From IMG/VR virus record IMGVR_UViG_3300045988_154953: a stretch of DNA of 64,000 nucleotides, one strand, 5' to 3'. How positions within the stretch are numbered: the first letter of the stretch is position 1; every line of letters begins with the position of its first letter. Both the position numbers and the translations under genes were made by a program. The notes beneath the pieces were generated by a model. The model had not been told where the DNA came from, searched no databases, and worked only from the letters and a program-made list of their open reading frames with translations. The stretch comes from a virus. Of this stretch, positions 3,357-56,570 are shown in pieces.

Positions 3357-3899
3357 TTACGGCTGAGTCAAGTCGATTATTTGTGGATTATATAATTTGG
3401 CCAATTGTTCCATATATTTAAAATCAATACATCTTTTTGAAACAGTATTATCTGGATCACTATATTTTAAATTGTAAATAAATAAAGCTTTCTCGTCTAA
3501 ATCTAATGTGTTAATTACCTTTAATTCCATATTTAATAAATTAATATATTTACTTTTAGAAGATTCTGATTCAAAATTTCTATATGTATCTATCTTACTT
3601 TTCGCAAAATTATGAGTATACTTTTTAGGAACTGGAAACATGTAATTTAAATTTACAACAGCTATTAACCTAGAAGGATTTTTAGGGTCAAACAATTTAT
3701 AAAAATCTTTTTGTTGTCTCATATGTATATGACGTTTTTGAGGATGAGATACTTGTGTAATATAATATAAATCGCCCACTTCAAAAAGGACTCCAAAGAA
3801 AGGTTTATATTTGTCAGAACCATAATCCGTTCTTGGTATTCTGCTTTCAATATTTCTTAAATAATTTAAATAATCTTCATCTACATTAATCCACTTCAT
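3357..3899 (-). CDS. Type III toxin, ToxN/AbiQ-family endoribonuclease-like
   Basis: Blocks DYLNYLRNIESRIP, KPFFGVLFEVGDLYYITQVSHPQKRH and VVNLNYMFPVP match conserved ToxN/AbiQ blocks by eye; preceded by a tandem repeat array and attenuator hairpin. Confidence 0.75.
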   Translation of the reverse strand: MKWINVDEDYLNYLRNIESRIPRTDYGSDKYKPFFGVLFEVGDLYYITQVSHPQKRHIHMRQQKDFYKLFDPKNPSRLIAVVNLNYMFPVPKKYTHNFAKSKIDTYRNFESESSKSKYINLLNMELKVINTLDLDEKALFIYNLKYSDPDNTVSKRCIDFKYMEQLAKLYNPQIIDLTQP

Positions 3900-29579: not shown

Positions 29580-29641
29580 CTCCTTTTATTTCAATTTGAA
29601 CATCTCACCACTAAAGCCATGTGATTCTTAGTTGTAAAAAA

Positions 29642-29669
29642 AAGAACTATATCATTTGATATAGTTCTT
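29642..29669 (-). terminator. Strong intrinsic terminator at the end of the tRNA/ncRNA block
   Basis: 12-bp perfect stem AAGAACTATATC-attt-GATATAGTTCTT followed on the minus strand by eight T. Confidence 0.85.
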
Positions 29670-30668
29670 TCAGCTTATTTAGTGGACTCGAACCACGCTT
29701 ATCCCCAACGCCATACTTCATATCATATATTACAATCTGGCCATACATTTTTTCAGATACAAAGTGCAAGGATTTGAACCTTGTAAATAAGCTCTGAATC
29801 GTCATCCAGAAAAGGCGATAGAGTAGTGACGACCTACTCAGGATTAAGACCGGTATGCATCCCAGTTCGAAATCTTTGGACACGGTTTATCGCATAGAAT
29901 TGGTGGTGACGAGCCACCAAGAGATACCCATGTTGTCATCATAGGGCAGTGGGTGTGTAACCCAAGTAGAATTAAAAATATATCATCCTAAAAGTACCCA
30001 ACTCAGATGATTTACGTCCTATAGTAACGCATAGTTATCTAGGAGATGTGAATCGCTTTCCGCAATTTCTCCATACTTTTTTGTTTTTCTTTTATTTGCT
30101 AACCTTCGCACAAAATCGTTGAAAATACTAAATATACGTGTATCGGCCTAGTTCTATGCTGATCATACACCCGATACTCCTTCGCTGTCCTGGTGGGGAT
30201 CGAACCCACAACATACAGATTAACAGTCTGTCGTTCTACCATTGGACTACAGGACAATAATTTTGGTAAATAAGGTTGCACAATAATATTAATATGTACA
30301 ACCTTCACTAGCTCAAATCTGGATTACTGTACGCAGCGCCCCAGGAAAAATCTCGAAGATTTTTGTTCAGTATTTTTCACAATAATCGTAATATCCAGTT
30401 ATACTAACCGCCCCATGAGGACAGTATCAGACTCGAACTGATATCTATTATTGTTATTATTAAAAACGGCCTTTCGCCAAAATAACTGCTACTCTTATAT
30501 ACTTCGTGCACATTCGCCTCTTATGATCTTTCGGGGAAACATTAGAGTAGCAGTAAAACTATATAGTAAAATTAGATCATACTATAAGTCTATATAATAA
30601 AGCCAAACATTTTACTGCCTGTTATCCTGCACATATGGCCGACAGTATGGCGTTTAGCGATCCTCCGA
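29670..30668 (-). other. ORF-free, hairpin-rich segment containing tRNA-Asn and three T-arm-like hairpins (structured RNA candidate)
   Basis: No credible CDS across about 1 kb. T-arm-like hairpins at 29682..29696, 29767..29783 and 30426..30442. 9-nt inverted repeat 29673..29681/29784..29792. 7-bp hairpin 29900..29920. 11-bp inverted repeat 30485..30495/30544..30554. Confidence 0.45.
30185..30256 (-). tRNA. tRNA-Asn (anticodon GTT)
   Basis: Hand-folded cloverleaf: 7-bp acceptor TGTCCTG/CAGGACA, anticodon stem ACAGA/TCTGT with loop CTGTTAA, T arm GTGGG-TTCGATC-CCCAC. Confidence 0.85.
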
Positions 30669-31661
30669 TTATAAATTTTTATTAATCCATTTTTGTAAAG
30701 CTTTTACAGTTTCTTTACCCATAGATCCATCCTGAGTAACATCTAAGAATTTCTGTAATGCAATAACTGATTGTTTACCAAATAAACCATCAACTGTTGT
30801 ACCAATCTTTTTTTGTAAAGCTTTTATTAATTGACTTCCAGCTTTATAGTTAGAATCTTTGAATTTCCAACTATTTGTCTTAGCAGCTGATAAATACTTT
30901 CTATTTGAAGATGGCTGATTGCTGATAATACCATCTGCTGCCGTTTTAAAAATTTTCTGTAAAGCTTTAGTGGTATCAACACCCCATGAACCATCCACAG
31001 TAATAGATTCTTTCTTTCTCGCACTTTCAGAAGATATAGAAGAGTTAATATTAAGAGATGTTTTTTTCAAAAGAGATTCATCATTCAAATAATTAACATC
31101 TACATTTCCAGATATACCTGACACTTTACCACTTTCAGAATATTGATGGATAGCATAACCTTTATTATTTGTACCGGTATAATGAGCCATCCATTCTACA
31201 TATTTTCCACATATACTTTCATCTACAAAACGTCTTTTATAATCTGGATTATAATAAACACCAGCTTTATGTCCTTTGGATTGAATATAATCACAAAATG
31301 TTTTGGTAAATTCATTGAATAATGTTTTAGTAATAGTTATTCCATTTTTCTTTGCATAATTTACAGAGTCATATTCAAAATCATAAAAGATTGGAAGAGT
31401 AATTTTATAATTTTTAATTAGATCAATACATCCTTTTGCTTCTTCTAATGCTTGCTTCTTGTTTAGAGCATAAGAAAACCAATATATTCCAACGGGAATT
31501 CCTGCTGCAATAGCACCTTTTATATTCTGTTCAAAACAGTCGTCTTTATGTACTTGTCCATATCCAGCACGAATGATTGCAAAACTAATTCCATCATTTT
31601 TAACTTTTGTCCAGTTAATCGATTTTTGATGACTGGACACATCTATCCCTTTGATTGCCAT
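30669..31661 (-). CDS. Endolysin, GH25 muramidase with C-terminal peptidoglycan-binding repeats
   Basis: MAIKGIDVSSHQKSINW...FAIIRAGYG...GIYWFSYA GH25 signature; C-terminal DG..G..T..ALQK repeats. Confidence 0.85.
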   Translation of the reverse strand: MAIKGIDVSSHQKSINWTKVKNDGISFAIIRAGYGQVHKDDCFEQNIKGAIAAGIPVGIYWFSYALNKKQALEEAKGCIDLIKNYKITLPIFYDFEYDSVNYAKKNGITITKTLFNEFTKTFCDYIQSKGHKAGVYYNPDYKRRFVDESICGKYVEWMAHYTGTNNKGYAIHQYSESGKVSGISGNVDVNYLNDESLLKKTSLNINSSISSESARKKESITVDGSWGVDTTKALQKIFKTAADGIISNQPSSNRKYLSAAKTNSWKFKDSNYKAGSQLIKALQKKIGTTVDGLFGKQSVIALQKFLDVTQDGSMGKETVKALQKWINKNL

Positions 31662-51785: not shown

Positions 51786-51814
51786 TTGACAATCACGGAA
51801 AACCGTGATAATAT
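51786..51814 (+). promoter_or_regulatory. Sigma-70-type promoter P1 with embedded 18-bp palindromic operator
   Basis: TTGACA (51786..51791), 17-nt spacer, TAATAT (51809..51814); spacer is ATCACGGAAAACCGTGAT. Confidence 0.7.
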
Positions 51815-51903: not shown

Positions 51904-51932
51904 TTGACAATCACGGAAAACCGTGATACAAT
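51904..51932 (+). promoter_or_regulatory. Sigma-70-type promoter P2 with an identical operator
   Basis: TTGACA (51904..51909), 17-nt spacer, TACAAT (51927..51932); same palindrome at 51910..51927. Confidence 0.7.
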
Positions 51933-51934
51933 CA

Positions 51935-52656
51935 AAACAAGTTAAGAACTGGTCAATAGTTCTTACGTCATTATATCACATCTGACCAGTACTTGACAAC
52001 CATTGGATAAAATCCTATCCGATGGTAGGCGGTAAGCCTCTGCCATGAAACACTGGTATACTTTCTGCTTGGTAGGTCGTAAAACATCTACCGCAATAAA
52101 GGTGTTGTTCTTTGACAACTTAATAGCCGTTTCATCTTTTTTAAGATGATAATACTTGTCTCGGTATGACAAAAGACAAGGAATTCCATGAGTAGGGATA
52201 AACGAAAATGGTACGGGAATGTTATGCTTACGGGTGTAGTATGTCTCGGACACTAGAAATAGTGGGCGTGGTGTAGCCGACAAGCTGGCCAATGCAATTC
52301 GCTGGTAATAGGTGATAGCAATTAGGGCAATGTTATACACAAAAAGTCTGCAAAATTCACGGTGGTAAATGGGCGGTTGTAGTCTTGTAATATTGCAAGC
52401 CCCGCAAAAAGTGATAAAAATAATCCGTGAAAAGTAGTAGAAACTTTTGTAAATAATAACATTGACTATCGGTGATAGGTCAATACATCTTTCTAATAGC
52501 TCTTTTTTTGAGAAGCTATGGGCGCTTAAAAACGAATAACATTAAATGTAATGTTACCGTTGACGGTTCAAAGTCCGTATGAGAAAAACAGATGACATTT
52601 TAATTTTATTTTCTGCCGATGTCCCCGGCTAGAATAGGGATAGAAAGGGGCATATT
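51935..52656 (+). other. About 720-nt ORF-poor, G+C-richer leader or ncRNA downstream of P2
   Basis: No plus-strand ORF of 60 aa or more; hairpins at 51943..51965, 52461..52484 and 52538..52555; the first CDS starts at 52657. Confidence 0.45.
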
Positions 52657-53463
52657 ATGCTGTGTAACTATATTAAGAACGTGGAGAACCAGGAAGTAAG
52701 AGCAACTTTAACAGATGCTATCACATGGGAAAAATGCGACATGCTGTTAACTCTTAATGCTGAGTCATTAGCAAAACAGGAGAAAATCCTGTCAAGCAAA
52801 GAATCCAGCGAAGAGGATAAAAAAGCCGCTCAGGCCAAAGTTGACAAGTTGACCGCTGAGAAAGATAAACTTGTCAAAGAGCAGTCGGAAGTAGCAGACG
52901 TTTATAAATCTGTTTTGGCTGCTATTGCTGGGGCTAAAAATGAATATATCTCTAACGATGAGACGGCAGCCCGCAACATTCTTAGGCTGTCAAGTTGTGA
53001 TGATAACAAGAATTTTTTCAAGCTTGCTATCATCACTTCAGAAACTTTTGAAAGTTTCTATGACGGCATGGTTCAATTGCATGATACATGCTCTGAATCC
53101 ATCGCTGACAATGGGCTTAGGACTTATTCAGATGCTGATAATAAAGTGGCATCTGAATTGATGCTTAATGTCCAGAAAACACTTAGGGGCATGTTGTCTA
53201 TCCCTGTTGAAAATGACTATACAAAAAAATGTGTAGTCAAAATCAACAAACAGGACATGAACATTATCCATGAGTGTTTTGTTAGCGGTGTTTCCGTTGA
53301 CATCACTAAGGATAAAGAGGGTAAAACTAAGTCTGTTGACGGTTTATCATTCAGATATGCCATCAACAAAAAGACAAAAAGAGACGGTACTGTTGAATAT
53401 AATGGTATCCGTTTCAAAGAAACATTAGCAAAAATTGTTTTTGCTAAACTGTTTTCAAAATAA
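52657..53463 (+). CDS. Hypothetical protein (first early-arm gene)
   Basis: 268-aa ORF, AAAGGGG RBS. Confidence 0.6.
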   Translation: MLCNYIKNVENQEVRATLTDAITWEKCDMLLTLNAESLAKQEKILSSKESSEEDKKAAQAKVDKLTAEKDKLVKEQSEVADVYKSVLAAIAGAKNEYISNDETAARNILRLSSCDDNKNFFKLAIITSETFESFYDGMVQLHDTCSESIADNGLRTYSDADNKVASELMLNVQKTLRGMLSIPVENDYTKKCVVKINKQDMNIIHECFVSGVSVDITKDKEGKTKSVDGLSFRYAINKKTKRDGTVEYNGIRFKETLAKIVFAKLFSK

Positions 53464-53495
53464 TTGCAGACTTAATTGTTAATTAAGTTTGCAAA

Positions 53496-53544
53496 GGGAT
53501 GGCTCTGGTGAGCTTTTATCATGGTTCGATTCCATGACGTCCCA
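53496..53544 (+). ncRNA. tRNA-like element lacking an anticodon arm, copy 1
   Basis: Acceptor GGGATG/CGTCCC, D-like hairpin GCTC-TGGT-GAGC, T arm CATGG-TTCGATT-CCATG, discriminator A; 33 nt after a stop codon. Confidence 0.5.
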
Positions 53545-53580
53545 TTTCTATAAATCCGCACCTATGAAAGGGGTATTTTT

Positions 53581-53790
53581 ATGACTAGATATTACGGTAG
53601 TTATGCAGATATTATTCTTCTTGAGGCTGAACTTACAGAGGTCAATAATCAAATTGACGCTATGTATGACTTTTGGAACGAAAACAGCGTTCCTGAGTCT
53701 CTGGTGGCTCGTGCTGAGTCTCTTGAGAAAGAACTGGAAACTTTAAAACGCACACGTACTCGTGGTGGACTTGTGTGCCGGTGCTATTAA
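53581..53790 (+). CDS. Hypothetical small protein
   Basis: 69-aa ORF, AAAGGGG RBS. Confidence 0.5.
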   Translation: MTRYYGSYADIILLEAELTEVNNQIDAMYDFWNENSVPESLVARAESLEKELETLKRTRTRGGLVCRCY

Positions 53791-53822
53791 GCGGAAAGTC
53801 TGTAGAAAGAGAGGGAAACGAG

Positions 53823-54059
53823 ATGAATTACGTCCAGATTCAAAAAATGCTTCAGGACATCAAAACCGATTATATTGTAAAGGGTCGGCCTTGGAAAGAT
53901 GATGAATATGTCATCATTGACATATTAATGCATGTATATCTCAAACACGCTGACATTGACCATGAAGAGATTAAATGGCTTTTTGTCAACTATCTGGAAA
54001 CGGGTGAACTGAATTTTCCGGCAGCTATAAAAATGGCACGACAACGGAAGTATGCATAA
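53823..54059 (+). CDS. Hypothetical small protein
   Basis: Start set to MNYVQIQ after GAGAGGGAAA. Confidence 0.5.
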   Translation: MNYVQIQKMLQDIKTDYIVKGRPWKDDEYVIIDILMHVYLKHADIDHEEIKWLFVNYLETGELNFPAAIKMARQRKYA

Positions 54060-54063
54060 TGTA

Positions 54064-54108
54064 AGGACGGCTGGTGCTGTAATATGAGTTCGATTCTCAT
54101 ACGTCTGT
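54064..54108 (+). ncRNA. tRNA-like element lacking an anticodon arm, copy 2
   Basis: Acceptor GGACG/CGTCT, GC-TGGT-GC, T arm ATGAG-TTCGATT-CTCAT; four of five T-stem pairs differ from copy 1 but stay complementary; 5 nt after a stop codon. Confidence 0.5.
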
Positions 54109-54175
54109 TTTGGAACTGTAAATGCAAACTAAAAATATTACGCACCTATGCGTAAAATAGGGGATTGGAGTAAAT

Positions 54176-54355
54176 ATGAAAACAAAATTTTCTGAACTTA
54201 CAAGAGAATTGGGAAAATTGTACCCAATAGAATATGATTATTGTAGTACGGAATCATTGTATTCCCGTGCTTTAAATGACGGAAAAATTACGAGAGGTAT
54301 ATTTAATGCCGCAAAAAAATATTATGATATCATGTGGGATTATGTAGGTGATTAA
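54176..54355 (+). CDS. Hypothetical small protein (59 aa, below the ORF-track cutoff)
   Basis: ATG after GGGGATTGGAG; hand translation MKTKFSELTRELGKLYPIEYDY... Confidence 0.45.
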   Translation: MKTKFSELTRELGKLYPIEYDYCSTESLYSRALNDGKITRGIFNAAKKYYDIMWDYVGD

Positions 54356-54403
54356 TTCACCTACATAGGCAAACTGCAAATATAAAAGGAAAGAGAGGAA
54401 AAT

Positions 54404-54580
54404 ATGAAAATATTAGTAACTATAATTAAAACAGTCTTATTAATTTTCGCCCTGCTCATTGGTTGGGTATTCATGACGTGTGATGTCATGGCCGGTGGTC
54501 TTTGGATCATCTTATGTATAACATCATACGGCGCTGTATACGGTATAGTTGAAGAATACAGAGAAAATAAAGCAAAATAG
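54404..54580 (+). CDS. Small membrane protein (58 aa, below the ORF-track cutoff)
   Basis: ATG after AAGAGAGGAAA; two hydrophobic helices in MKILVTIIKTVLLIFALLIGWVF...GGLWIILCITSYGAVYGI. Confidence 0.45.
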   Translation: MKILVTIIKTVLLIFALLIGWVFMTCDVMAGGLWIILCITSYGAVYGIVEEYRENKAK

Positions 54581-54595
54581 AGAGGGGATATATTT

Positions 54596-54802
54596 ATGAA
54601 AAAATATTACATTAGATTGTTTTATAGTAACACCTGTTCACCAAAAACAAGGAAAGTCTCTAAATTCTTTTTTAAAAGAGAATTTAGAGATAGATTAAAA
54701 ACTGTCAGAAGCTATTATGATAGCGGATGGCAGCGAATGGATATCTCAGCTTTGAAAAAAGCGGAAAATGTGTCTGCTTTATTTATCTATAAAGCAGACT
54801 AA
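54596..54802 (+). CDS. Hypothetical small basic protein
   Basis: 68-aa ORF, GAGGGG RBS. Confidence 0.5.
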   Translation: MKKYYIRLFYSNTCSPKTRKVSKFFFKREFRDRLKTVRSYYDSGWQRMDISALKKAENVSALFIYKAD

Positions 54803-54815
54803 CGGGGGTATTATT

Positions 54816-55232
54816 ATGACAAAAAATAGATTATTTACAGCAGTTAATACGGAAATTATTCATGGTAGAATTTTCTTAATGAATTCTACAATTTTAGAAT
54901 TAGATAACCATGTTGTATTTGTATGTACAAATGGATTTAAAGTAAATAAACAGGGAGAATATAAGCTCCTTGCATGGTTGCCAGGTAATAGAAAATGGGT
55001 GTCTGTTTATGCCAATAATAAATTTACAGATGCCATGTATAGATGTTATAGACAAACACGGAAAAGCGGGAAAAGCAAAATGTCTGCTTCAAATGTTCAA
55101 AACATGATGAAGCATGACAGAGTGCATAAACACGGTTCCGGCGGTTCCCGAATTTTCAACGGAAGTATAACCGACTATGAGACACGGAAACGGCCTTTGC
55201 ATGACTTCAATAGAGGCTATAATTTTACTTGA
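54816..55232 (+). CDS. Hypothetical protein
   Basis: Start set to MTKNRLF after GGGGG. Confidence 0.5.
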   Translation: MTKNRLFTAVNTEIIHGRIFLMNSTILELDNHVVFVCTNGFKVNKQGEYKLLAWLPGNRKWVSVYANNKFTDAMYRCYRQTRKSGKSKMSASNVQNMMKHDRVHKHGSGGSRIFNGSITDYETRKRPLHDFNRGYNFT

Positions 55233-55298
55233 AAAATCATTGCAAATCACATGTATGTGTGATAGAATTGAGGTGAGAAATGGAGGAATAATATTAAT

Positions 55299-55571
55299 AT
55301 GATTGTATATTATAAATTAGCAAGTCTCTTAAAAGAGAGAAATATGAATTGGAAAGATTTATCAGCTGCCGGTATTGGAATAAATGCTCCACAAAGTTTT
55401 TCACAAAATAAATCCATGAATACAACAAATATAGACAAAGTATGTATGTATCTTGGTGTGCAGCCTGGCGATATTATGGAATGCGTTGATGAAAAAGATA
55501 TAGAAAAAGCAAAACTTGAAGCTCAAATGGCAGAACTTCAAAAAAAATTAGACGCACTCAAAAACAATTAA
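55299..55571 (+). CDS. XRE/Cro-type helix-turn-helix regulator with coiled-coil tail
   Basis: LASLLKERNMNWKDLSAAGIG...IDKVCMYLGVQPGDIMECV; paralogous motif in ORF 4855..5064. Confidence 0.6.
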   Translation: MIVYYKLASLLKERNMNWKDLSAAGIGINAPQSFSQNKSMNTTNIDKVCMYLGVQPGDIMECVDEKDIEKAKLEAQMAELQKKLDALKNN

Positions 55572-55689
55572 ACACACTAAACCATTTTCGTGATGTCGGG
55601 AAAATGGTAATTAAGCACCCAAACGCGTTTTACAACGTAAACGCAAAGTAAAGCGAATGGGTGCTATTTTTATTGAAGAGGACATGAGA

Positions 55690-55866
55690 ATGAAATTTGA
55701 TAATTATTTAAAAGAACAGTTACAAGATCCTGAATTTAAGAAAGAATGGGACGGTACACAGGAAGAGTATGCAGCCATTAACGATAAAATAAAGGCAAAC
55801 GCATTAAATTATAATAATCCATCTGTATCAGAAAGATATATCCGAGACAACAAAAATCATTCTTGA
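55690..55866 (+). CDS. Small protein sharing its N-terminal motif with the HigA-like antitoxin (no HTH)
   Basis: MKFDNYLKEQLQDPEFKKEWD versus EIEKRRQNDPDFRKAWDES in ORF 56274..56570. Confidence 0.45.
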   Translation: MKFDNYLKEQLQDPEFKKEWDGTQEEYAAINDKIKANALNYNNPSVSERYIRDNKNHS

Positions 55867-55923
55867 CAAAAACAACATATATGATGTATTATGTAAGTAC
55901 AAAAGAGAAAGAGAGGAAATTAC

Positions 55924-56262
55924 ATGATACTACACCCTTATAAATCAAATTCTGGACGGGATTTAATTTTTGAATATTTAGATTCTCTGCCAAACAACGA
56001 ACGTATTGATGGCTTGTCAGTTATAGAACATATGGAAAACGGAGAATTTGATAAAATCAATTTCAAACGATGGCAAAAGAAAGTATATGAAGTATATTTT
56101 CAAAAGCATAACCGTATATTTTATGTAACAGTAGATAAAGCTAATATATATTTGCTTCACGCTTGCCGAAAACAGAAAAATAAAACAGAAAAGCAAGATG
56201 CAGATATTGTCAAAAAGCGAGCAAAAGAACTAGGCAAAGAATTAAATAAAACATTTATTTAG
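55924..56262 (+). CDS. RelE/HigB-superfamily toxin (phage Gp49-like family)
   Basis: SGRDLIFEYLDSLP...KVYEVYFQKHNRIFYVTVDKANIYLLHACRKQKNKTEKQDADIVKKRAKE fits the Gp49-like pattern; followed by an HTH partner 12 nt downstream. Confidence 0.65.
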   Translation: MILHPYKSNSGRDLIFEYLDSLPNNERIDGLSVIEHMENGEFDKINFKRWQKKVYEVYFQKHNRIFYVTVDKANIYLLHACRKQKNKTEKQDADIVKKRAKELGKELNKTFI

Positions 56263-56273
56263 GAGGTGTTTGT

Positions 56274-56570
56274 ATGCCATTTGGAACAGTAAATGTTAAG
56301 GAAGAAATTGAAAAGAGAAGGCAAAATGATCCTGATTTCAGAAAGGCATGGGATGAATCCCGTGCCGAGTATGAATTAATTGGAGAAATGATAAGTCTTC
56401 GAAAAAAAGAAAATATAACCCAAAAACAATTAGCTGCAATTACTGGAAATAAACAGCAGACTATTTCCAGAATTGAGCGAAAAGAGAGTGTCCCTACAAT
56501 TCGGATGTTTACGAAAATACTTGACGCATTAGGTTATGAATTGAGGATTGTAAAAAAGGGAAGTATGTAG
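56274..56570 (+). CDS. HigA-like XRE-HTH antitoxin
   Basis: ITQKQLAAITGNKQQTISRIERKESVPTIRMFTKILDALGYEL helix-turn-helix; AGGAGGTG RBS. Confidence 0.65.
   Translation: MPFGTVNVKEEIEKRRQNDPDFRKAWDESRAEYELIGEMISLRKKENITQKQLAAITGNKQQTISRIERKESVPTIRMFTKILDALGYELRIVKKGSM

Follow-up and report, generated by a model that had tools for sequence, protein, structure and literature searches.

The 64,000-nucleotide stretch of IMG/VR virus record IMGVR_UViG_3300045988_154953 analysed here (the window, always at its full length) is phage DNA with a G+C content of ~30%. It carries six tRNA genes on the minus strand, its proteins are distantly similar to those of Firmicute phages, and no near-identical DNA was found among the deposited phages of INPHARED. 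On the plus strand, a set of genes starts at ~52.6 kb, behind a gene-free stretch of ~2.2 kb. This set contains two short tRNA-like elements (TLEs), copies A and B, whose coordinates, strand and letters, as given in a preliminary description of this DNA, proved exact when read back from the window (Table 1). Each lies shortly after a stop codon, as had been noted: the gap is 32 nucleotides (nt) for copy A (stop codon ending at 53463) and 4–5 nt for copy B (stop codon ending at 54059). A hairpin at 53464–53494, absent from the first reading, ends one base short of copy A. The closest relatives by identity of the 268-amino-acid (aa) protein encoded upstream of copy A are the contig lineages L002 (95%) and L003 (81%). 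Both keep the hairpin and the two TLEs, and gene content changes at the TLE borders between the window, L002 and L003.

Copy A reads, from 5' to 3', GGGATG, GCTC-TGGT-GAGC, TTTTAT, CATGG-TTCGATT-CCATG, A, CGTCCC and A; copy B reads A, GGACG, GC-TGGT-GC, TGTAAT, ATGAG-TTCGATT-CTCAT, A, CGTCT and G. The fold first proposed for them, tRNA-like with a UGGU D-loop-like hairpin and a canonical T arm and lacking an anticodon arm, is confirmed here and extended to a covarying family. Copy A alone folds to a three-way junction at −20.6 kcal/mol (z = −3.05), and its model fold lies less than 1 kcal/mol from the minimum-free-energy fold. The acceptor stem drawn for both copies needs qualification for one of them: copy A folds into the model, but copy B has just five acceptor pairs, which do not form in its minimum-energy fold, and the support for its predicted structure is comparative, not thermodynamic. 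The A that follows the T stem probably pairs with the last U of the linker as a sixth T-stem pair; across the family, the bases at these two positions are U-A in 47 cases, C-G in one and another combination in three. With this pair, copy A would stack 6 + 6 = 12 pairs, as in tRNA. Between the two copies, four of the five T-stem pairs are changed on both sides, and the acceptor changes U-G versus C-G and G-C versus G-U hold as described. Selection on structure, which had been argued from these differences, is borne out by strong covariation across the family. Copy A of L002 differs by two substitutions, one turning a T-stem A-U pair into G-U and the other an acceptor U-G pair into U-A, so that pairing is kept both times; in copy B of L265, the C-G closing pair is U-G.

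As had been expected, ARAGORN misses both elements, calling six tRNAs in the window and neither TLE copy. Rfam makes no call at either of them, including its tRNA, YrlA and RAGATH families (53300–54300 searched to E = 10), and the sole match of a tRNA-clan model to copy B is a 17-nt T arm of transfer-messenger RNA (tmRNA) at 10.1 bits. When both strands of the window were scanned with a descriptor written by hand for a T arm and the acceptor next to it, the six true tRNAs, copies A and B, and two dubious matches were returned. For a covariance model (R1), we used a gap-poor seed of eight sequences from which copy A was left out; a MAFFT alignment of 25 elements had shifted the 5' strands of the acceptor and was not used. 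R1 finds copy A at 37.5 bits (E ~1e-9) and copy B at 58 bits as the sole significant matches in the window, the next-best match reaching 18.5 bits. A refined model (R2) scores them at 47.1 and 53.8 bits, respectively.

Table 1 Features of the plus-strand gene set and its leader in the window
Feature	Position	Strand	Details
Two strong sigma-70-like promoter matches	51786–51814, 51904–51932	+	Consensus matches only
Candidate twister (type P1-like)	52545–52599	+	57 nt upstream of the 268-aa start codon
268-aa gene ('gene 1')	52657–53463	+	Putative RNA cleavage modules on both sides; 52 homologues
14-bp hairpin	53464–53494	+	Between the 268-aa stop codon and copy A; no T run after it; fold of 53460–53580 has z = −4.16
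TLE copy A	53496–53544	+	Acceptor 53496–53501 with 53538–53543; UGGU hairpin 53502–53513; linker 53514–53519; T arm 53520–53536; A53537 (probably pairs with U53519); discriminator-like A53544
CGCACCTATG box, copy 1	53557–53566	+	Between copy A and the ribosome-binding site of a 69-aa open reading frame (53581–53790)
TLE copy B	54064–54108	+	Acceptor 54065–54069 with 54102–54106; UGGU hairpin 54070–54077; T arm 54084–54100; A54101
Box, copy 2	54138–54155	+	Inside hairpin TTACGCA-CCTA-TGCGTAA, followed by AAATAGGGG and a 59-aa open reading frame (54176–54355)

The TLEs belong to a family that is widespread in phages. IMG/VR was searched with a core common to copies A and B and a third copy, in L003, CTGGTG-N(10-15)-GTTCGATTC-NNNN-A; a too-specific pattern of 25 bases gave no matches. 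Among the ~120 matches listed, 48 have an acceptor of 5–7 pairs that closes near the UGGU hairpin, in units of 41–53 nt, and at least 31 distinct sequences have six or more acceptor pairs. In 185,579 genomes of bacteria and archaea, this pattern gave two TLE-like cases among the 120 matches listed; most others fall in one conserved coding sequence, possibly for a release-factor motif. The family is therefore strongly associated with phages. Its members include a TLE in the cultured Clostridioides difficile phages phiC2, phiCD119, phiMMP01, phiMMP03 and phiCDHM19, where it lies in unannotated DNA after the RinA-like late regulator. In the loci that we fetched, R1 recovers many copies that the pattern misses; in these, the small loop varies (UGGA, AGGU or longer loops) with GG kept, and the T loop varies within tRNA norms (UUCGAGU, UUCAAUU, UUCGAAU). 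The architecture common to the family comprises an acceptor-like stem of 5–7 bp, a 2–4-bp hairpin with a UGGU loop in which GG is conserved, a short linker and the T arm, typically within 43–50 nt.

Across 62 distinct sequences, 92.4% of stem cells are paired, compared to 55% after shuffling and 38–52% when the partners are slid. The alignment contains 349 double changes, with covariation in each of the three helices; a set of 75 sequences gives a similar result. The occurrence of G-U pairs in the stems points to RNA read from the TLE strand. The 31 distinct examples are intergenic, nearly all on the strand of the flanking open reading frames (ORFs) and often 2–21 nt past a stop codon. Hairpins of at least 6 bp adjoin 43 of 61 TLEs versus 21 of 61 control windows, a count that includes ~12 near-identical C. 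difficile copies. No protein family was found consistently beside the TLEs; there is a loose excess only of small terminase subunits (8 of 69 neighbours) and RinA-like regulators.

Some TLEs form arrays without ORFs between the units, at least seven copies in L074:1500–3100 (−) and at least eight in L062:7600–9100 (+), where ARAGORN finds no tRNA. In the L062 array, a hairpin capped by UGUGAA precedes every unit and its stems covary; in this cap, a U-A pair could enclose a GUGA tetraloop of the GNRA type. In the L074 array, a hairpin follows every unit. L074 also holds smaller minihelices of acceptor and T arm that have a TGCAAAT loop and are missing the small hairpin.

To understand what occupies the TLE positions in related phages, we compared 13 related contig lineages at the two sites on either side of the 268-aa gene and its homologues. 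At the downstream site, the window, L002 and L003 have the hairpin and copy A; L131 (3323–3395) and L132 have a twister-P5 ribozyme (47.5 and 46.2 bits; Rfam gathering score 37.6); and L004–L009 and L135/L136 have a hairpin and then a hammerhead-like element with a CCGAUGA core. The hairpin at the matching site in these relatives is part of, or stands before, the twister or hammerhead. At the upstream site, the candidate twister of the window scores 31.0 bits (E = 4e-4) on RF03160, below the gathering score of 67.2, as does that of L002 (4891–4945; 36.8 bits, E = 1e-4). Two of the three differences between these two elements together replace A-U by G-C in the predicted T1 pseudoknot, a compensatory change that supports the candidate. 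The same site holds a TLE in L132 (35.4 bits) and in L003 (49.5 bits), where this third, diverged copy C (1883–1926), just upstream of the 268-aa homologue, matches A and B in architecture and differs in its stems. In L004, L257 and L135, the upstream site is occupied by hammerheads that have every core base and score low on the Rfam model, and nothing was detectable at the upstream site in four of the 13 lineages. Hammerheads are also found on the TLE strand in two unrelated TLE phages, L062 and L045.

The hammerhead-like elements at L004:5836–5885, L135:4397–4446, L135 ~3462–3515 and L257 ~2640–2690 deviate from the hammerhead core at position 4, which is C rather than U (CCGAUGA). Elements of this kind are conserved in several lineages, and most copies have a stem II of only 2 bp, which covaries (GC-AGAA-GC versus GC-AGUA-GU).

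Since a tRNA mimic alternates with two self-cleaving RNA classes at equal positions, it is most simply another way to cut there. We consider it reasonably probable that host RNase P and/or RNase Z cut phage mRNA at TLEs. This role as punctuation of the polycistronic mRNA, which the preliminary description listed among several, is favoured by the ribozymes found at both sites in relatives; the cleavage itself is predicted from sequence. In the mechanism that we propose, the TLEs would be transcribed within the polycistronic plus-strand mRNA, their acceptor stem would stack on the T arm, and the small GG hairpin would replace the D loop. Host tRNA-maturation endonucleases would recognize this shape. 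The 5' edge would be the RNase P site, which in copy A falls between A53495 and G53496 and in copy B at ~54063–54065; RNase Z would act just 3' of the discriminator-like base (A53544; G54107), and CCA might then be added. A TLE would then be the host-enzyme-dependent equivalent of a self-cleaving ribozyme and would separate cistrons. After the cut at copy A, the 53464–53494 hairpin would form the 3' end of the 268-aa mRNA and should block 3' exonucleases. For the twisters of L131 and L132, we take the cleavage site, as applied to their Rfam alignments, to lie directly after the closed hairpin (hairpin-U^AAUGC), so that the upstream mRNA ends in a hairpin; RNase P cleavage before G53496 would give an equal product. 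The consequence is presumably differential mRNA stability or expression.

Several observations weigh against this interpretation. Several of the ribozyme calls fall under the Rfam gathering score, and a further twister at the downstream site, in L257–L260, is assigned by motif match (regular expression) and by eye only. At a second site examined for the exchange, downstream of the RinA-like gene of Clostridium phages, no ribozymes were found: relatives are empty or have a true tRNA-Ser, as phiCp-A does where phiC2 has its TLE. The covariation alignments were fitted to the model, and about half of the members were found with a pattern that fixes CUGGUG, the T loop and the A. The weak five-pair acceptor of copy B leaves its model fold at −8.6 kcal/mol, 2.3 kcal/mol above the minimum of −10.9 kcal/mol. 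No TLE encodes CCA, neither G1-C72 nor U at −1 is enriched, and the acceptor length ranges over 5–9 pairs; nor is there an RNase P-type preference at N-1 or the discriminator beyond base composition (N-1 is A in 25 cases, U in 24, C in 7 and G in 5). Finally, the arrays of L074 and L062, being free of ORFs, are not mRNA punctuation, and suggest that released small RNAs or the interspersed hairpins matter in themselves.

The relation of TLEs to tRNA can be read from model fits in both directions. R2 fits the true tRNAs of the window at 15–19 bits, with the acceptor and T arm in register and the D and anticodon arms as an insertion of 33–37 nt at the small hairpin. One 59-nt member, L075:9343–9401 (−), has a full D arm and no anticodon arm; it passes the threshold of the Rfam tRNA model (48.5 bits) but is not called by ARAGORN. 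It is likely an evolutionary intermediate, and it is a pitfall for annotation. Together, the alignment and this member indicate that TLEs are tRNA derivatives cut down to the acceptor/T-arm helix and the GG loop. By analogy with G18 and G19 of tRNA, the GG loop could dock on the T loop. As canonical tRNAs the elements fail, having no anticodon arm and no match to RF00005 even at E = 10. The tRNA features that they have are the UUCGAUU T loop in both copies and, in copy A, six acceptor pairs, five T-stem pairs and the probable U-A pair. The D arm and the U8/N9 connector are missing: there is a hairpin of 2–4 bp with a 4-nt UGGU loop and no connector, with GG alone kept. As in t-elements and mascRNA, the tRNA-like fold lies outside coding sequence inside what would be a longer transcript, in the window and in the 31 distinct examples.

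The exchange with ribozymes also raises the question of whether TLEs are themselves a new class of small self-cleaving ribozyme that merely resembles tRNA. Their presence at twister and hammerhead sites is the kind of genomic association that reportedly led Weinberg et al. in 2015 to pistol, hatchet and twister-sister. All conserved bases, however, are those conserved in tRNA (the T loop and GG), and the junction has no extra conserved core. There is neither a hammerhead core (CUGANGA...GAAA) nor a twister P4 loop with pseudoknots, and no ribozyme family matches 53300–54300 at E = 10. Recruitment of RNase P/Z explains the same data by known chemistry, and we judge a new ribozyme class to be very improbable. 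Equally far from what we would expect is an origin of TLEs by decay of tRNA genes, or as recombination scars derived from tRNA (attP-like cores or module junctions), that has left them without a function as RNA. Such an origin would account for the grading of the family into true tRNA through L075:9343–9401, for the shifts of gene content at the TLE borders and for the tRNA-Ser of phiCp-A at the phiC2 TLE site. It is at odds with the covariation of three stems in 62 distinct sequences, with the retention of pairing by every substitution between close relatives, and with three diverged copies inside 2 kb and arrays elsewhere, which are unlike attachment-site cores. In addition, the tRNA match that the preliminary description named as a refutation was not seen: among 241 million metagenome records (a collection distinct from host genomes), no tRNA shares the 3' half of either copy. 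That of A has no match, and the one match to that of B is a phage copy without a tRNA.

Two further readings grant the TLEs an RNA function other than being cut to separate cistrons. TLEs might be genes for small trans-acting RNAs, in which a mimic of the top half of tRNA, perhaps CCA-tailed, binds or titrates a protein that reads the acceptor, T arm or elbow; processing would be a mere production route. Candidate targets are a defence toxin that attacks the acceptor end of tRNA, the CCA-adding enzyme, elongation factor Tu or a modification enzyme. This seems unlikely to us, and we are similarly doubtful of its decoy form, in which CCA-tailed non-decoding RNAs of 45–50 nt, single or from arrays of 8–14 copies, would be the product itself as decoys or sponges for host factors that read the top half of tRNA, such as defence toxins modifying or cutting its acceptor end, or the machinery of tRNA maturation and quality control. 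The ORF-free arrays of eight or more copies at L074 1600–2900 and L062 7800–8950 fit it well, as do the strong enrichment in phages over bacterial genomes (among the matches listed) and the conservation of those parts of tRNA that proteins read, with the decoding part missing. However, a decoy of a tRNA-specific enzyme should copy one identity, and the acceptor sequence is unconserved across the family. The window lineage has single TLEs at ribozyme sites, where ribozymes release no tRNA mimic, and no conserved partner protein adjoins. Alternatively, an uncut TLE could act in cis as a roadblock or protein-binding site that guards mRNA ends, pauses exonucleases, or couples or insulates the translation of cistrons. 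The position right after stop codons and before ribosome-binding sites is in line with this, and so are the other stable hairpins that often adjoin, some with GNRA-type loops. We nevertheless find it quite improbable, because it leaves unexplained both the exact copy of the tRNA T loop and GG loop and the self-cleaving RNAs as alternative occupants of the sites.

Processing signals of tRNA-like shape, to which TLEs would belong if host RNase P and/or RNase Z cut them, are already an established kind. By analogy, their closest counterparts are the t-elements of plant mitochondria and MALAT1-mascRNA. The t-elements are non-canonical tRNA-like folds in mRNA flanks with a GGTTCRANYCC T arm; their borders coincide with the 5' and 3' ends of mRNAs, where cutting by RNase P and RNase Z has been proposed or shown (PMC1920247). 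They are organellar, few and individually degenerate cloverleaves of ~70 nt, whereas phage TLEs form a compact family of 43–50 nt that has a defined UGGU mini-hairpin, is widespread in phages and is exchangeable with ribozymes. In MALAT1-mascRNA and MEN-beta, a tRNA-like fold follows a stable 3' structure, RNase P makes the upstream 3' end, and RNase Z and CCA addition release a small RNA. Those transcripts are eukaryotic nuclear long non-coding RNAs; mascRNA keeps a cloverleaf with an anticodon-like arm, and upstream protection comes from a triple helix instead of a hairpin. The TMERs of murine gammaherpesvirus 68 (MHV68), viral tRNA-like units that are not aminoacylated and are joined to precursor-microRNA hairpins as RNase Z processing handles, resemble the arrays of TLEs and hairpins in L062 and L074. 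They differ in coming from a herpesvirus, in transcription by RNA polymerase III, in their full-length tRNA-like fold and in hairpins that feed the microRNA pathway. Another tRNA-like processing signal is an archaeal 5S rRNA leader.

The phage twisters and hammerheads occupy the same two intergenic sites as TLEs and have the same expected product, a hairpin-ended upstream mRNA. They cut themselves and leave 2',3'-cyclic phosphate and 5'-OH ends, whereas the TLE has no catalytic core, and RNase P/Z would leave 3'-OH and 5'-phosphate ends. Like the TLE, the tRNA-like domain of tmRNA lacks an anticodon arm and joins an acceptor stem and T arm to a reduced analogue of the D loop. Unlike tmRNA, the TLE has no mRNA-like region, tag ORF or pseudoknots, ARAGORN calls no tmRNA, and pair 3 of copy A is G-C instead of G3-U70. 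In YrlA RNAs, the acceptor-like stem is closed, and the two RNA ends pair in a long helix that binds Ro. The TLE differs in that its ends pair as an acceptor stem only, with no Ro-type helix. It has no Rfam match of the Y RNA or YrlA kind, and ten scanned plus-strand ORFs (52657–56570) have no Ro/TROVE Pfam match; the Y-RNA-like role once considered for these elements finds no support. The YrlA module does mimic tRNA with a T arm and a D-arm analogue, and some YrlA RNAs are phage-borne and are RNase P substrates (PMC4201824). tRNA-shaped RNAs and small ribozymes are also combined in transcript end formation by the hepatitis delta virus-like theta ribozymes beside gut-phage tRNAs (PMC10879173). 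In that system, a genuine tRNA that decodes is trimmed by the ribozyme, whereas here the ribozyme is replaced by a tRNA mimic that does not decode.

No Rfam family covers the short TLE form at its gathering score. A literature search, with most subscription journals outside its scope, returned no description of a phage TLE family or of its exchange with ribozymes, and the accessible part of a large screen of viral structured RNAs names tRNA-like candidates in general terms only. Both the family and the exchange thus appear undescribed. TLEs are a common, unannotated phage RNA family that a simple model can find, and they give rise to missed or false calls when tRNAs are annotated. To our knowledge, the role of small self-cleaving ribozymes in phages and bacteria is a long-standing open question. 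The natural swap of hammerhead, twister or tRNA mimic at one pair of syntenic sites among related phages argues that the job at these sites is to cut the transcript and leave a hairpin-capped mRNA, a job that can be outsourced to host RNase P/Z. TLEs could also serve as ready-made 45-nt processing tags for polycistronic expression in bacteria.

The 268-aa protein between the two exchange sites has no Pfam or PHROG match, and its AlphaFold model (predicted local distance difference test score 85) has no PDB neighbour at E <= 0.001. Single-protein scans of IMG/VR returned nothing for the 268-aa gene and one locus for the 421-aa neighbour, L001, which has no TLEs. We also considered the 53464–53494 hairpin as a homologue of the 5' part of twister-P5; the common TGCAGA after the stop codon is suggestive, the palindromic sequence makes the comparison ambiguous, and we do not claim homology.

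A box shared after each copy, as proposed at the outset, stands in so far as there are two exact CGCACCTATG copies; it lies outside the TLE and is absent after copy A in L002 and L003. In relatives, an extended form, (T/C)GCACCTATGCGTAAAATAGGRG, is located between the cleavage module and the ribosome-binding site, the module being a TLE in L003, L132 and L265 and a hammerhead in L135/L136; the conserved leader cassette GCACCTATGCGTAAAATAGGRG is at L003:3949, L132:2466, L135:2465 and L265:1640. The box travels with the leader of the downstream gene, not with the TLE. By inspection, it can form either of two hairpins that exclude each other, the Shine-Dalgarno region being overlapped by one of them, and the cassette may be a translational switch or a 5' stabilizer. 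The ORFs after the two boxes are not paralogous.

Transcripts begun at the promoter matches upstream of the 268-aa gene would carry a leader of ~700 nt with the twister-like element at its end. The leader region 51940–52650 (+) has a G+C content of 38%, versus 30%, and is conserved between the window and L002. Its last feature is the hairpin GCCG-ATGTCCC-CGGC; the bases of the hairpin loop come close to full complementarity with GGGGCAT, the ribosome-binding region. Related hairpins (GTGG-ATGTCC-CCAC) are present in L131, L133, L258 and L259.

Several tRNA-like units elsewhere have features of their own. The TLE at L132:2344–2422, upstream of the 268-aa homologue, has two candidate 5' acceptor strands, GGATAG nearby or GGGATAGG ~35 nt further up, which suggests alternative folds; a hairpin and a T run follow it. 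In phiC2, a second tRNA-like unit, GAACAGA...GTTAG-TTCAATT-CTAAC-TATGTTC with a GAGG-loop hairpin, lies at L130:2340–2410 (phiC2 ~53500–53575), upstream of the TLE at phiC2 53680–53724. The pair falls within an unannotated gap of ~700 nt that ends in a terminator and is probably a late-leader RNA in C. difficile phages.

In the window itself, the region 29600–30670 (−), ~1 kb around tRNA-Asn, is free of long ORFs. Three additional T-arm-like hairpins (~30440–30424, 29782–29766 and 29697–29680) and a terminator at 29668–29634 lie in it, with R2 reaching just 14.3 bits at 30419–30472; the region could contain degenerate tRNA-like elements or a larger non-coding RNA. Further along the plus-strand operon, 55924–56570 (+) encodes a Gp49 (HigB-like) ORF and an HTH_3 ORF, a toxin-antitoxin-like pair whose operon position is kept in L002, L003 and L133.

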